Shown here: in pieces, positions 5,400 through 9,914 of the stretch
Layout: each line of letters starts with the position of its first letter
Position numbering within the stretch: the first letter of the stretch is position 1
Assembly: GCA_024276825.1 (NCBI GenBank)
Contig: JAJRWI010000008.1
Coordinates: 1 to 13,370, forward strand
Reading direction: 5' to 3'
DNA from: an archaeon
GTDB taxonomy: Archaea > Asgardarchaeota > Thorarchaeia > Thorarchaeales > Thorarchaeaceae
DNA length: 13,370 nucleotides
The notes under the pieces: model-generated
Seen by the model: the letters and a program-made list of their open reading frames with translations, nothing else
Databases searched by the model: none
Told to the model about the DNA's origin: nothing
Made by a program: the position numbers and the translations under genes

Positions 5400-5432
5400 G
5401 CAGAGTCAAAATCTTATGATTACAGAGGATCT

Positions 5433-5449
5433 CCAAAGGAAAAAAGAGG
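5433..5449 (-). terminator. Archaeal-type T-rich terminator of the RIO kinase gene
   Basis: Minus strand reads CCTCTTTTTTCCTTTGG about 30 nt after the stop codon. Confidence 0.4.
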
Positions 5450-5475
5450 TGGCGTGTGAATCAAAAGCTCGCATA

Positions 5476-6264
5476 TTACACCACCTCATCGAAGTGTTTC
5501 ATATTTCGGGGGATATATTCATTCAGGAATACTTGGACGATCTCCTCAATGTTTCGTGAGAGCCCATAGCGTTTGAAATATCGCAATACATTGAAGATGT
5601 CCATTCGAAGTATTTTCACAGCTTTGTTCATGTCAGTCCATGGTCCCACCTCGTAGGCTTGAGGGAGATCAATTATCCAAGGGTGCTCATTCCACCAGAG
5701 TATGTTAAAGGCACTGAGATCGCCATGCACGTAATGCGCTTTTGAATACATGAGTAGATACATGTCCAAGGTCTCATCCAGCACTCTCTCAGGGTCCTCC
5801 AATCGAACATCCTTTAGCTGTGGAGCAGGTTCGATACCATCACCAATGAATCGCATTGTTAGATAGTAGCCAACACGACTGATTGGCGTTGGAACTCGCA
5901 TACCTGCATTGAAGCAAGCTGTTAGCATATCGTACTCCTTTGCAGCAAGAACCTCAGCCTGTGCAGGAGCGAAGAACCCACGTTTCTTGCGAGCATGAGA
6001 ACTATGCCAGAGCCTATACGCTTTGAGGATGATCGGGTGGCCCTTCCAGAGAGCAAGGTAGATCGATGCCTCCTTGCCCGCCTTTATCTGAGATATTACA
6101 TCTGTGGCCAGACCCAGTGTTATTGCATCATTCTTCACCTCCCTAAATGTGATCTCATTTATCTCAACTGATTTTCCTCGTCGGCCCTCCCGCTCAGTAC
6201 TACGCTTCTGCGTGATGGCCCTTGCTTTATGTGGATTGAACTTTTCCACAATTCGAGTCATCAT
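5476..6264 (-). CDS. RIO-family atypical Ser/Thr kinase/ATPase (RIO1-like or RIO-B type)
   Basis: P-loop GKEASIY, catalytic Lys (ILKAYR), helix C Glu (KEY), VPTP, catalytic loop HGDLSAFNIL, metal loop IIDLPQA. No Rio2-type N-terminal wHTH. SD GGTGAG at 6270-6265; start is ATG 6264 or 6261. Confidence 0.92.
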   Translation of the reverse strand: MMTRIVEKFNPHKARAITQKRSTEREGRRGKSVEINEITFREVKNDAITLGLATDVISQIKAGKEASIYLALWKGHPIILKAYRLWHSSHARKKRGFFAPAQAEVLAAKEYDMLTACFNAGMRVPTPISRVGYYLTMRFIGDGIEPAPQLKDVRLEDPERVLDETLDMYLLMYSKAHYVHGDLSAFNILWWNEHPWIIDLPQAYEVGPWTDMNKAVKILRMDIFNVLRYFKRYGLSRNIEEIVQVFLNEYIPRNMKHFDEVV

Positions 6265-6546
6265 CTCACCATGGCAAGAGATGACTCAGATCCAATTGAT
6301 TATCTTGGTTCAACTTTCTTTTCACTCTCATCTGAGTCAGCGTACGCATCTTGTTCAAGGCACAGGGGATTTGGACATGAAAGAGTGAAAACACAGAACC
6401 CAACATTGAGGGGTGCTTAGCACACGATGCGTACAGAAATGTGCAAACGCCAGATGACCAGAAGAAGTCAGAAACCTACCTCAACGTGGGTGCCTGTGTC
6501 CACTGCTAGCAATACCGTTCTAACCGACATAGAAGGCAACACCTCC
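6255..6546 (-). promoter_or_regulatory. Structured 5' leader of the RIO kinase gene; putative translational attenuator
   Basis: Five interleaved complementary pairs: 6479-6499/6391-6411, 6377-6391/6319-6331, 6274-6287/6255-6269, 6413-6434/6342-6363 and 6330-6339/6282-6291. They form two mutually exclusive sets. Four mismatches become G-U pairs only on the minus strand. Confidence 0.7.
6468..6530 (-). CDS. Putative leader peptide (uORF), 20 aa, MSVRTVLLAVDTGTHVEVGF
   Basis: ATG 6530-6528 and TGA 6470-6468, preceded by a strong SD GGAGGTG (6546-6540) and a TATA-like box. Too short for the ORF track. Confidence 0.6.
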   Translation of the reverse strand: MSVRTVLLAVDTGTHVEVGF

Positions 6547-6580
6547 GTTGATGGTTGATTGATGCGTCGGAGAAATATGT

Positions 6581-6596
6581 CCTTTTAAGTCTTGGT
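6581..6596 (-). promoter_or_regulatory. Putative BRE/TATA promoter for the uORF-RIO transcript
   Basis: Minus strand reads ACCAAGACTTAAAAGG. This predicts a start near 6560, just upstream of the uORF SD. Confidence 0.5.
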
Positions 6597-6630
6597 GTCA
6601 ATTTGAGCCCCAGAAATGAAGAATAGGGAA

Positions 6631-8022
6631 TCATGTAATATCAATCGCTTCTTCTTTCTCCTCAATGATGACACGAGTGGGAAGGGTTTCTGAAACGTAC
6701 TTCTGAAGCAGTAATGCACCAATTATTCCAAGAAACGATGCAAGCCAGAATGGAATTATTATTCCTTCAAAAGTAATAGGTCCGAATGAAAACACCATTA
6801 ACGAGAAAGCAGCATAAAGAAAACCACCAAGAAGTGGGCCAATAGTAGCACCTGCATTGAAGAAGGCTTGTATTGTCCCAAATAATTTGCCCCTCAGACT
6901 CCAAGGGATTATGTCAGCCTGAATTGCCCGCAGTGCGGGTTGTGAGGATGATATTGCCGCATTCTGCACTATCCAGACGCCCCCCGTCTGTGCTAATGTG
7001 GTAGTAAATGGAAGCATTCCAAAAGTTGCTCTTGAAACAATGGCTCCACCCACAGCAATGCGCTTCCTTCCATGTTTGTCAGAATACCTGCCTGCAGGAA
7101 TCGAGAACATCATCCCAACAGCACCCGCACCTGAGATGAGAAGTCCAATCATGCCAATGTCAGTTGTGATCTTGCTCATTAGGAAGAGCTGGAACAATGG
7201 AAAGCCAATACCCATAGCAATACCATTCACAAGGGACATGATGTATAGTGCATGGATCATACGTTGTTTGTCAGATGGTATCACTGATTCCACCTCTGGC
7301 AGAGGATCGGAGGTGTCTTCTTCATTCTGTTTTGCCCTTGATTCTGACCATTCAGAACCATGAACAGTTTCATCAAGAATGAACATTGTGAGAACTGCGG
7401 CAGGAAGGACTATCAACGCCGCTATGAAATACGGGACCCGAAACACATCAGGCACAGGCAAAAGAAGCAGGTCCCTACACAGATTATATAACAAGCCTCC
7501 AAGGCCAGGGCCAATGATGAAGCCCACATTTGAGAAAGTCATGTATACACCGAGACCCTCTCCTCTGCACTCTTTTCCAACAATGTCCATAAGGGCAGCC
7601 TCAGCAACGGGCCATACCATGGCTGACACCATTCCCTGCAAGGCCCTCACAATCAACAGGTGGACCCAGTTCTGGGCAAGGCCAAAAAGAACAAGCAGCA
7701 GAACATAGCCAAAAAGGCCAATCACAAGGATCCTCTTTCTTCCATGCTTGTCAGACATTCCACCCCAGAATCTTGCAAGGAGAGTCCTTGTGGCCATGAA
7801 TGCGGCCATCATGATTCCAAAAATGACCGAGAAACTGGCGACTATTTCGGGAGGGACTATGTATCCTGGGCCAGGAGGTTGAGTGATTCCGCCTTCAAGT
7901 GCAATAAGGTAATAGGACAGGGAGGGTGAAACAATACCAAAACCAAGCATGATGGTCATCGCATCGAATGCGATAATTACAACCTTCAGATTTCTGTAAA
8001 GACTTGGTCTTGAGGACTTCAT
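6631..8022 (-). CDS. MFS transporter (DHA1/TetA-like)
   Basis: About 12 hydrophobic segments, motif A in both halves (GGMSDKHGRK, GRYSDKHGRK), RALQG and antiporter-type GFIIGPGLGG. Start moved to ATG 8022, which has SD GGGGAGGT 6 nt upstream. Confidence 0.92.
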   Translation of the reverse strand: MKSSRPSLYRNLKVVIIAFDAMTIMLGFGIVSPSLSYYLIALEGGITQPPGPGYIVPPEIVASFSVIFGIMMAAFMATRTLLARFWGGMSDKHGRKRILVIGLFGYVLLLVLFGLAQNWVHLLIVRALQGMVSAMVWPVAEAALMDIVGKECRGEGLGVYMTFSNVGFIIGPGLGGLLYNLCRDLLLLPVPDVFRVPYFIAALIVLPAAVLTMFILDETVHGSEWSESRAKQNEEDTSDPLPEVESVIPSDKQRMIHALYIMSLVNGIAMGIGFPLFQLFLMSKITTDIGMIGLLISGAGAVGMMFSIPAGRYSDKHGRKRIAVGGAIVSRATFGMLPFTTTLAQTGGVWIVQNAAISSSQPALRAIQADIIPWSLRGKLFGTIQAFFNAGATIGPLLGGFLYAAFSLMVFSFGPITFEGIIIPFWLASFLGIIGALLLQKYVSETLPTRVIIEEKEEAIDIT

Positions 8023-8207
8023 GGAACAACCTCCCCGTGCCAAAACTGAAAAAATTCTGGTTAATATACACTACCTTGTAGGACGCGTGAGAAACTGCAT
8101 TTTTTCGCATGTTTCAGTCCCAAATCAAAGGATTTATCTCTAGAAAAAGTTGGACACTCACGTTTTCCAAATGATAAAACAATGAAATGAGAAAGAAGTG
8201 GAGATAT

Positions 8208-9914
8208 ATGCCAAATCCAGCAAACCCATTGATAGTCCAGAGTGACAAATCGGTTCTTCTAGAGGTGGAGAATCCTCGATATGCAGAGGCGCGTGATGCA
8301 CTGGCGAGATTCGCAGAACTGGTGAAGAGTCCCGAGTACGTTCATACATACAGGATCACACCACTCAGTCTCTGGAATGCTGCTGCAATCGGGATGACAC
8401 CTGATGAAGTAATGGACACATTAAACGAGTTTGCAAAATACCCCATCCCAGGAAACATCGAGCGCGAGATCATAGACTACATGAGTAGGTATGGACAACT
8501 CACTCTGTTTATGGATGGCGAAGACCTTGTGCTTTTGTGTGACAATGAGGATTTGGCAGAAGAGATCTGGCAAAGCAAGAAGGTTAGGGAGTATTTGTTG
8601 GGCAGACTGGACCCCACAACTCTCAAGGTTGACCCGAATTACCGTGGACTAATCAAGGCTGCATTGATTGAGATTGGTCACCCAGTAGAGGACCTGGCAG
8701 GATATGTTGAGGGAGAACCACTCCATTTTGAACTCAGGAAGATGACTCGTGAGGGCAAACCCTTTGCTCTCAGAAGGTACCAGCAGGAAGCAGTGGATGT
8801 GTTCTATGCGGGAGGCGGAACGAAAGGCGGGTCGGGTGTTGTTGTACTCCCTTGCGGTGCCGGCAAGACTATGGTTGGCATTGGGGCTATGGCTAAGCTA
8901 CAGACATCAACCATCATTCTATGTCCAAATGTGGTTGCTGTCAGACAGTGGATATCTGAGCTTTTGGACAAGACAACTCTTACTCCTGAGGATATTGGTG
9001 AATACACGGGAGACTTGAAAGAAGTCAAGCCAGTGACCGTTGCAACATACCAGATTCTAACTTGGCGAAAGTCAAGAGACGCTGACTTTGAGCATTTCAA
9101 GATCTTTGAGGCCAGAAACTGGGGACTTATCATCTATGATGAAGTGCATCTCCTGCCTGCCCCAGTCTTCAGGGTGACTGCACAGATTCAGGCAACAAGA
9201 AGGCTGGGTCTCACCGCAACTCTGGTCAGGGAGGATGAGCGTGAGGAAGAGGTGTTCAGCCTTATTGGACCCAAAAGATTCGACATGCCCTGGAAGCTGC
9301 TTGAGGATCAGGGATGGATTGCCACAGCAATATGCTACGAAATAAGAATAGACCTTCCCCAGTCATTGAGAAGGAAGTATGCATTGGCGGAGGATCGAAA
9401 GAAGTATCGTATCGCTGCAGAGAATCCGGTGAAACTCGAGGTCCTCAAAGAAATCGTTGAATACCACAAGGGTGACAATATCCTCATCATTGGAATGTAC
9501 CTTGACCAGTTGCATATTATTGCAGAAGAATTGGATGCACCGTTGATCACTGGGAAGACCAGCAATGCAGACCGAGAAGTGCTTTACAAGGCATTTCGAG
9601 AGGAGAAGATCCGTTGTTTGGTTGTTTCCAAAGTTGCAAACTTTGCCATTGACCTCCCTGATGCAAACGTTGCCATTCAGGTGTCTGGAACTTTCGGCTC
9701 ACGGCAGGAAGAGGCACAAAGGCTTGGAAGAATACTTAGGCCAAAGACTGATGGAAGCTTCGCAAGGTTTTATTCAATTATCACCAAGGACACTCGTGAC
9801 ATGGAATTTGCAGCCAAACGCCAGCTGTTTTTGACTGAACAGGGTTATCAATATGTCATTGCATCGGCTGATGAAAAGGTCTGGGAAGAACCTCCTGAGA
9901 AGTTCTTTAGATAG
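8208..9914 (+). CDS. xpb: XPB/Ssl2/Rad25 family DNA helicase/translocase with N-terminal domain
   Basis: N-terminal PLIVQSD...ELVKSPEYVHTYRITPLSLWNA, LRRYQ, Walker A LPCGAGKT, DEVH, LGLTATLVRED (RED motif) and GSRQEEAQRLGRILR. Start moved to ATG 8208 (GGAG at 8200-8203). Confidence 0.95.
   Translation: MPNPANPLIVQSDKSVLLEVENPRYAEARDALARFAELVKSPEYVHTYRITPLSLWNAAAIGMTPDEVMDTLNEFAKYPIPGNIEREIIDYMSRYGQLTLFMDGEDLVLLCDNEDLAEEIWQSKKVREYLLGRLDPTTLKVDPNYRGLIKAALIEIGHPVEDLAGYVEGEPLHFELRKMTREGKPFALRRYQQEAVDVFYAGGGTKGGSGVVVLPCGAGKTMVGIGAMAKLQTSTIILCPNVVAVRQWISELLDKTTLTPEDIGEYTGDLKEVKPVTVATYQILTWRKSRDADFEHFKIFEARNWGLIIYDEVHLLPAPVFRVTAQIQATRRLGLTATLVREDEREEEVFSLIGPKRFDMPWKLLEDQGWIATAICYEIRIDLPQSLRRKYALAEDRKKYRIAAENPVKLEVLKEIVEYHKGDNILIIGMYLDQLHIIAEELDAPLITGKTSNADREVLYKAFREEKIRCLVVSKVANFAIDLPDANVAIQVSGTFGSRQEEAQRLGRILRPKTDGSFARFYSIITKDTRDMEFAAKRQLFLTEQGYQYVIASADEKVWEEPPEKFFR

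Follow-up and report, generated by a model that had tools for sequence, protein, structure and literature searches.

A conserved upstream reading frame and mutually exclusive helices in the leader of a Thorarchaeota RIO-type kinase gene: a candidate translation-linked RNA switch

The window analysed here is a 13,370-nucleotide (nt) stretch of DNA from a Thorarchaeaceae archaeon (contig JAJRWI010000008.1), and our subject within it is the leader of about 300 nt that precedes a RIO-type kinase gene on the minus strand. RIO kinases complete small ribosomal subunit maturation. Comparison of this leader with its counterparts in related genomes establishes its anatomy, its conservation, a constraint on the frame of a short upstream open reading frame (uORF) and the existence of two pairs of mutually exclusive helices. 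We propose, with a probability of about 0.6, that it is the 5' leader of the mRNA of a Thorarchaeota-specific RIO-type kinase and that, as an RNA switch linked to translation, it controls the ribosome-binding site (RBS) of the kinase.

The RIO locus and its leader

The genes and 5' signals of the locus are given below, where SD1 is the Shine-Dalgarno (SD) sequence of the uORF, BRE the transcription factor B recognition element and MFS the major facilitator superfamily.

5476..6264, minus strand: RIO-type kinase/ATPase gene, 262 amino acids, the gene under putative control (Pfam PF01163, E = 1.3e-33)
6582..6599, minus strand: BRE/TATA promoter of the leader-RIO transcript, with TATA-like CTTAAAAG at 6589-6582; conserved in orthologs
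6540..6546, minus strand: SD1, GGAGGTG, a perfect SD for the uORF; invariant in 61 of 61 leaders
6468..6530, minus strand: uORF of 20 codons plus TGA (MSVRTVLLAVDTGTHVEVGF), ATG at 6530 and TGA at 6470-6468; frame conserved
6631-8043, minus strand: MFS transporter gene, Tet(A)/multidrug-type
8187-9914, plus strand: XPB helicase gene, divergent

The leader occupies a 366-nt gap between the MFS gene (8043-6631) and the RIO gene (6264-5476), both on the minus strand, the former ending 85 nt ahead of SD1 with the leader promoter in between. The RIO gene starts at 6264 or 6261, just after its own SD sequence (SD2, GGTGAG, 6270-6265). A first-pass annotation made from the letters of the window had called a TATA element, the GGAGGUG sequence, a 20-codon uORF and the RIO SD and AUG, and all of these were found on the minus strand where it had placed them. 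Its view of the region as the leader of the RIO mRNA gains support from the promoter, since most orthologous loci have a BRE and TATA of the gaccgcaaa..CCTATATA type, placed 40-45 nt ahead of GGAGGTG. This conserved position, taken with the usual archaeal spacing, indicates that transcription probably starts near 6560, some 15 nt before SD1.

Within one Thorarchaeota family, about 60 genomes have this leader of about 300 nt upstream of their ortholog of the RIO paralog, each in a single copy. In 67 fetched loci, iterated nhmmer searches recovered the leader by nucleotide homology, upstream of the first RIO gene, despite only 50-65% identity between the RIO proteins themselves. It is present both where the MFS gene is the upstream neighbour and where a divergent XPB helicase gene takes that place. 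A covariance model (R1), built on the first 118 positions of the leader (its 5' domain), gave exactly one match per genome in 24 of the 26 family genomes sampled, each adjoining a RIO gene, and none in 125 genomes from 26 other Asgard families, a search in which stricter filters were applied. Judged from these comparisons, recurrence upstream of orthologous RIO genes makes the leader more than a chance arrangement.

Simpler identities for the stretch were considered and rejected. It is not a repeat, a mobile element, a tRNA or a known RNA family, being single-copy within its own genome, free of tRNA and without a match in Rfam 15 even at E <= 1; the sole Rfam match in the window at that threshold is a chance microRNA match far from the leader. 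Nor is it the remnant of a decayed tandem RIO copy, as its homology is to the leaders of relatives and not to coding sequence, or the 3' untranslated region (UTR) of the upstream MFS gene, since it stays with RIO where the MFS gene is absent and has its own conserved promoter. In two other Asgard families a GGAGGT followed by an ORF of 28-29 codons was seen about 240-270 nt upstream of a distant RIO paralog of 29-35% identity (locus L025 in genome G035 and locus L030 in G028), and R1 does not detect these upstream regions. No uORF of this kind precedes the canonical Rio1 genes, whose upstream neighbour is an eIF1A-like gene or a tRNA.

The RIO domain of the window protein is evident from the motifs GKEAS, HGDLSAFN and IIDLPQ, which are readable in the translation, and near relatives of the protein carry the name 'RIO1 family regulatory kinase/ATPase' (Candidatus Thorarchaeota). 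The gene differs from the canonical Rio1 on contig 45 (44910-45518): identity is 50-65% to orthologs, found in 71 of 86 family genomes, and about 30-39% to canonical Rio1 genes. The best NCBIfam matches of the protein lie far below cut-off, which marks it as a divergent paralog, and it is specific to the family. The Rio2 N-terminal (winged-helix) domain was found neither in this protein nor anywhere in the 98%-complete genome, whose only RIO genes are the canonical Rio1-like gene and the leader-controlled paralog; for this reason the paralog may take the Rio2 role in this lineage.

The locus varies among relatives. In most family genomes two tandem RIO paralogs stand behind the leader (for example G007, contig C3, 150817-149220, and loci L003, L004, L005, L007, L009 and L012), and the window genome has a single copy at the leader with a convergent gene directly after it (5400-5475). 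In G001, from the same genus, and in G023, one of the two copies is shortened to about 150-176 amino acids. The MFS gene lies between the XPB gene and the leader in 8 of 23 loci inspected, and elsewhere XPB faces the leader directly. Some RIO orthologs (P0021, P0035, P0037 and others) carry an additional precomputed Pfam match, PF19974, which the window protein lacks.

Conservation of the upstream reading frame

SD1 is complementary to the organism's own 16S 3' end (...GGAUCACCUCCU), and the arrangement GGAGGTG-N8-11-ATG occurs at just 20 sites in the 2.9-Mb genome. Both GGAGGTG and ATG are invariant across the 61 leaders compared, with a spacer of 9-11 nt in 56 of them. Conservation of the uORF in orthologs, which the first-pass annotation had named as a check on its proposal, proved complete, the frame being open for 18-26 codons in 61/61 leaders; the other two frames are stopped before codon 18 in 60/61 and 57/61. 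The stop codons are mixed (TAG 23, TAA 22, TGA 16), and in 55 of 59 leaders the stop falls within the loop of the hairpin that we call P2. In 57 of 59 leaders the distance from the ATG to the conserved GCAC motif is 34, 37, 40, 43, 49 or 55 nt, values that all keep one frame; the exceptions are two genomes of one genus, in which the conserved CUGCAC motif is read in another frame. Lengths that change in threes and stops that are interchangeable at a fixed place are signs of selection of the kind imposed by translation, unlike that expected from RNA structure alone. The uORF is thus conserved as a reading frame and, as we infer from this pattern, is probably translated.

The encoded peptides tell a different story. 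There are 59 different sequences with variable C-termini (..VEVGF, ..VEKV, ..DRVF, ..AVRN), and the sole conserved stretch, VD-x-CT, corresponds to the RNA strand common to P1 and helix a (see below). No common C-terminal or arrest motif was found among the 59 peptides; a nascent-peptide stall of the ermC/cat type, as had been suggested at first, is therefore not indicated. A 20-codon ORF of this degree of conservation has been overlooked by gene callers in this lineage.

Covarying helices with shared arms

Helices were sought among 29 representative leaders, less than 78% identical to each other, by scanning 2850 pairs of 10-column windows. Because MAFFT columns drift in the variable arms, we chose a statistic tolerant of misalignment, in which the duplex energy of a sequence's own two segments is compared with that of segments swapped between sequences. 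The empirical null was clean, with a median z of 0, a maximum positive z of 3.0 and no pair above 3.5, as against 42 pairs with z < -4 that lined up as antidiagonal streaks covering P0/P1, a, P2, f, P3, d, e and c; the representatives are related, so the z-scores overstate their independence somewhat, and the null comes from the same sequences. Column-based counts of pairing were added for P0/P1/P2, d, c and e, the MAFFT columns being out of register for P3, f and a. The helices, in transcript order, are these.

6481..6551, minus strand: P0/P1 hairpin, 5' arms 6551-6546 and 6543-6537, 3' arms 6494-6489 and 6486-6481 (scan z -6.2 to -6.7)
6391..6511, minus strand: helix a, long-range, 5' arm 6511-6479 (uORF codons ~7-18), 3' arm 6411-6391 (six consecutive windows, z -6.3 to -9.0)
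6462..6480, minus strand: P2 hairpin, its loop containing the uORF stop (scan z -4.1; all 7 pairs change on both sides; 77% of cells pair)
~6458-6448 with 6412-6399, minus strand: helix f (scan z -6.4)
6451-6439 with 6425-6412, minus strand: hairpin P3 of the central domain (6412..6458) (scan z -9.5)
6342..6434, minus strand: helix d, long-range, 6434-6426 with 6350-6342 (scan z -11.5)
6391-6382 with 6328-6319, minus strand: helix b, complementary in many orthologs
6282..6339, minus strand: helix e, putative anti-sequestor, 6339-6330 with 6291-6282 (scan z -4.5 to -5.1)
6311..6336, minus strand: conserved block, consensus CUCAGUCAAUGAGAGUGAA..AAGUUG, best conserved in most genera (alignments A2 and A3)
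6255..6287, minus strand: hairpin c, sequestor, 6287-6274 with 6269-6255 (scan z -5 to -6.7)

Helices a to e had been proposed in the first-pass annotation, and their complementarity was confirmed; P0/P1 (which sequesters SD1), P2, P3 and f are additions to that scheme. Comparative support, which had been put forward as a test of the five, divides them, in that a, c and d covary, e is moderately supported and b shows no significant covariation. P0/P1 encloses SD1, the ATG and uORF codons 1-16, and in alignment A1, which covers P0, P1 and P2, 73.8% of cells pair compared with 33-46% in slid controls, a level reached by none of 500 shuffles. For helix a, the homologous site is the best downstream partner of the 3' half of the uORF in 25 of the 29 representatives, at -22 to -40 kcal/mol and with a cognate versus non-cognate z of -7.3. 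In the remaining four (L020, L047, L050 and L060) this half of the uORF finds its strongest partner away from the helix-a site, within or close to the RIO ribosome-binding region or an insertion, which hints at direct pairing of the uORF with the RBS in some lineages. The 3' arm of helix a may also fold into a local hairpin whose sequence differs between genera.

Helix d is the only consensus helix that RNAalifold predicts in its region, with all 6 predicted pairs compensated. In the column count its pairing reaches 94% of cells, each of its 8 pairs has changes on both sides, and none of 500 shuffles scores as high. Its 5' arm is displayed in the loop of P3, and from this geometry P3 and d would be likely to form an H-type pseudoknot. 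The conserved block at 6311..6336 includes the 3' arm of helix b, and four genera have a GAAGGUGUA-type form in its place.

Hairpin c buries SD2 together with the RIO start codons (6264 and 6261) and is present in the orthologs examined. On alignment A3, 67.4% of its cells pair (0/500 shuffles as high) and its covariation score is reached by 3/500 shuffles; RNAalifold gave no consensus helix for the RBS region, where the columns are out of register. About one third of leaders carry an insertion of ~120 nt inside the loop of hairpin c. For helix e, 68.5% of cells pair on A3, compared with 18-44% in slid controls, and only 9 of the 20 representatives of the short class have a strong form of it (-11 kcal/mol or lower); the sequences argue for a conserved complementarity with a moderate degree of support. 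In the window sequence alone, a three-codon mini-ORF, AUG GUG AGA UGA (6272-6261, minus strand), was seen to overlap the RIO start (AUGAUG) within hairpin c.

Two of these arms are shared. P0/P1 and helix a both use 6494-6481 and are for that reason mutually exclusive, while e and c both use 6291-6282, which places a sequestor and an anti-sequestor at the RIO RBS. Both exclusive pairs are kept across 12-16 genera, and by this comparative evidence each of the two toggles is real.

How the leader may work

In the model that we favour, the BRE/TATA promoter would start the transcript about 15 nt before SD1, and SD1 would drive translation of a uORF of 18-26 codons. The first toggle would lie in the second half of the uORF, which could pair either with the strand carrying SD1 (P0/P1), hiding the SD and start of the uORF, or with a segment ~70 nt downstream to give the 20-25 bp helix a. 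The second would lie at the RIO gene, where SD and start would be locked in hairpin c unless the 5' arm of c paired instead with a conserved GCUCAG segment (helix e). Loading of ribosomes on SD1, and their position on the uORF, would then choose one of two leader folds, and the choice between P0/P1 and a would be passed on to that between e and c, setting the time for which the RIO start stays accessible. Because c wins at equilibrium, this control would most likely be exerted during or just after transcription. It is plausible that synthesis of RIO, a small-subunit maturation factor, would in this way be tuned to the state of translation. Both the coupling of the two toggles and the identity of the ON state are inferred.

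Folding calculations bear on this model from both sides. The unconstrained minimum free energy fold of 6560-6250 contains a, b and c, the three hairpins that the first-pass annotation had assigned to the OFF state. Its energy is -94.8 kcal/mol, where dinucleotide shuffles average -85.2 +/- 5.2 (z = -1.86) and 4 in 100 of them fold equally well; taken by itself, the window leader thus does better than such controls only weakly. Opening the RBS costs 16 kcal/mol on average over the 29 representatives, and opening SD1 about 10-19 kcal/mol, and the high price of both start sites fits kinetic control. In nested equilibrium folds P0/P1 is dominant in most orthologs (mean 0.63), with helix a dominant in the window leader and four others. 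When the transcript ends before the 3' arm of c, the window leader is predicted to form e under all conditions folded, with a also present and d absent, and masking SD1/AUG1 in transcripts of such nascent length raises the share of helix a from 0.18 to 0.43, a shift away from P0/P1.

Several results weigh against the model. Forcing the uORF to be single-stranded leaves the probability that the RIO RBS is unpaired at 0.27 in the window leader, before and after, and in equilibrium folding the same masking raises it by more than 0.15 in 1 of 59 leaders; the predicted opening of the RBS, which was the central expectation of the first-pass annotation, did not materialise. The cost of opening the RBS is likewise unchanged by masking, with a mean coupling of -0.1 kcal/mol and +2.6 in the window leader. 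At equilibrium the presence of the 3' arm of c leaves helix e entirely unpopulated, nascent-length folds predict it in only some lineages, and its column covariation on A3 is not above that of shuffles. Helix b, the obvious link between the toggles, shows no significant covariation among the 29 representatives (best z = -2.6). Folds of nascent transcripts disagree between lineages and give no consistent polarity. Coupling and polarity are therefore not recovered by nearest-neighbour models, as the folding programs used represent neither crossing helices (a/d, P3/d, b/e) nor folding kinetics, and the assignment of helices to states is uncertain because these crossings cannot be modelled.

The chain originally put forward differs from ours in its trigger and its polarity. 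In it, a ribosome stalled in the uORF in the manner of ermC and cat blocks helix a, d and e form, c is released and RIO is switched ON, with a, b and c together constituting the OFF state. In its favour, a overlaps the uORF, one arm is common to e and c, covariation supports a, c and d, e has conserved complementarity, and the default fold of the window leader is indeed a+b+c; in a pseudoknot-free model, the helix topology also makes b incompatible with e, and d incompatible with both a and b. Against it, masking of the uORF leaves the RBS closed in the window leader and in 58 of 59 leaders, with the coupling energies given above, helix b is without covariation, e forms together with a and without d in nascent-length window folds, and the leader peptides share no C-terminal arrest motif. 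Furthermore, in most orthologs P0/P1 is predicted to occupy the 5' arm of a even when no ribosome is there, so that a stall is not needed to block a. We consider this chain to be improbable as a whole, at something like a one-in-four chance, and arrest by the nascent peptide in particular to be unlikely.

A somewhat less likely explanation is a riboregulator that senses a ligand or protein. Here the binding site for a metabolite, or for a protein such as RIO kinase itself or one of the ribosomal proteins, would lie in the conserved central and 3' parts (helix f, the P3/d pseudoknot and the CAUUGA, UGUGCUA and AUGAGAGUGAA..AAGUUG blocks), and the uORF with hairpin c would serve only as the expression platform. 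The leader is far more elaborate than a minimal attenuator, it contains sequence-conserved blocks that no supported helix accounts for, and both helices of the likely H-type pseudoknot are supported; a bacterial riboswitch acting together with a uORF (PMC11260477) offers a precedent. Set against this, the leader has no Rfam match at E <= 1, and its gene context names no ligand or protein. Similarity to 16S rRNA, whether the organism's own or that of the same genus, does not exceed shuffled controls: local alignment to the 3' 568 nt of its own 16S and to same-genus 16S scores 16 and 21, compared with shuffled means of 18 and 20, and a general 16S mimic was rejected on these grounds. A mimic of the 16S 3' end (site D) was rejected as well; the window leader reads CACC-C-ACGUUG where the organism's own junction of 16S and internal transcribed spacer (ITS) reads CACCUCCU-ACGUUG, and the sequence after CACC does not track the start of the ITS across 20 genomes.

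It is more doubtful still that no switch exists at all, and that a constitutively structured 5' UTR keeps RIO translation low, with the uORF as a decoy or standby site or as an independent small protein. The stability of hairpin c in every state of the equilibrium models, and the weakness or absence of e in about half of the lineages, would be expected on such grounds. A static fold does not explain why two exclusive helix pairs are both kept across 12-16 genera, and a functional peptide is hard to reconcile with poor conservation outside the RNA-pairing constraint and with the two genomes of one genus that read CUGCAC in another frame. Transcription attenuation by a hairpin and oligo-U was dismissed, as the runs rich in U that follow P2 and helix a are short and vary from ortholog to ortholog.

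Returning to the translation-linked switch, our preferred polarity, in which we have low confidence, is that a 30S subunit on SD1/AUG1 would free the uORF strand for helix a, and that P0/P1 would close when no loading occurs. With this polarity the leader would inform a factor in small-subunit maturation of how many small subunits competent for initiation are on hand. A more specific and rather speculative version makes the leader a kinetic sensor of such subunits: during transcription either a 30S subunit captures SD1 or P0/P1 closes ~50 nt later, and this race would choose between the two leader folds and thereby settle whether the RIO start is briefly exposed. As a working hypothesis we find a sensor of 30S loading more attractive than nascent-peptide arrest.

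Known relatives and significance

The nearest likeness in outline is to the erm/cat-type attenuators (ermC-ermCL, cat86, cmlA), which also have a short leader ORF with a strong SD of its own, a downstream RBS buried in a hairpin, an alternative pairing that uses one arm of that hairpin, and part of the switching RNA inside the leader ORF. Those systems are bacterial, about 140 nt long and built of four segments, whereas the present leader is archaeal, about 300 nt long and has at least nine helices. In contrast to them, the leader ORF's own SD is also sequestered here, neither an inducer nor a conserved arrest peptide could be recognised, and the folds calculated at equilibrium show no switching. 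The RBS is sequestered in a hairpin (c) as in that class, but occupancy of the leader ORF does not free it in equilibrium folding (1 of 59 leaders; mean coupling -0.1 kcal/mol) and the 59 different peptides hold no conserved inducer-responsive arrest motif. In view of these last two results we do not file the leader as an erm/cat member, although its outline works alike.

Other comparisons are more distant. The vmlR leader of Bacillus subtilis, a uORF-dependent attenuator, similarly places a small ORF and competing hairpins before a ribosome-related gene (translation of the uORF being a prediction in our case). Bacterial attenuators of that type act through transcription terminators, whereas no consistent oligo-U terminator follows any helix here; no sequence or structure homology to bacterial uORF attenuators was found, in that there is no Rfam match and R1 is restricted to one archaeal family. 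The eukaryotic uORF control of GCN4 and ATF4 is alike functionally only, translation of a short upstream ORF reporting the state of the initiation machinery to the main ORF. It works by scanning and re-initiation without RNA switching, while here both starts are SD-led and control would operate via alternative pairing. Finally, the autoregulatory rRNA-mimic leaders of ribosomal-protein operons (for example the archaeal L1 mRNA) share a structured leader, a ribosome-related gene and conserved unpaired blocks; those systems involve no translated uORF, and the RIO leader lacks similarity to 16S or to the 16S/ITS junction.

Leader-peptide and uORF-driven RNA switches are textbook biology in bacteria and, to our knowledge, essentially undocumented in archaea. 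Neither leaders of RIO kinases nor leader peptides of Asgard archaea turned up in the searchable literature, in agreement with the first-pass annotation, which knew of no attenuator of this kind described for a RIO kinase or in Asgard archaea. The leader is a real and new, probably translation-linked element, and it is probably an undescribed archaeal switch that links synthesis of a RIO kinase to translation. About 60 genomes provide a natural mutagenesis of it within the Asgard archaea, the closest prokaryotic relatives of eukaryotes. If our model is correct, the leader would supply a new structured RNA family for Rfam, with a defined set of helices for mutate-and-rescue experiments, and a concrete, testable case of feedback from the state of translation on ribosome biogenesis. 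Should the kinetic-sensor version of that model hold, these Asgard archaea would possess a feedback loop running straight from 30S supply to 30S biogenesis by way of a translated uORF.

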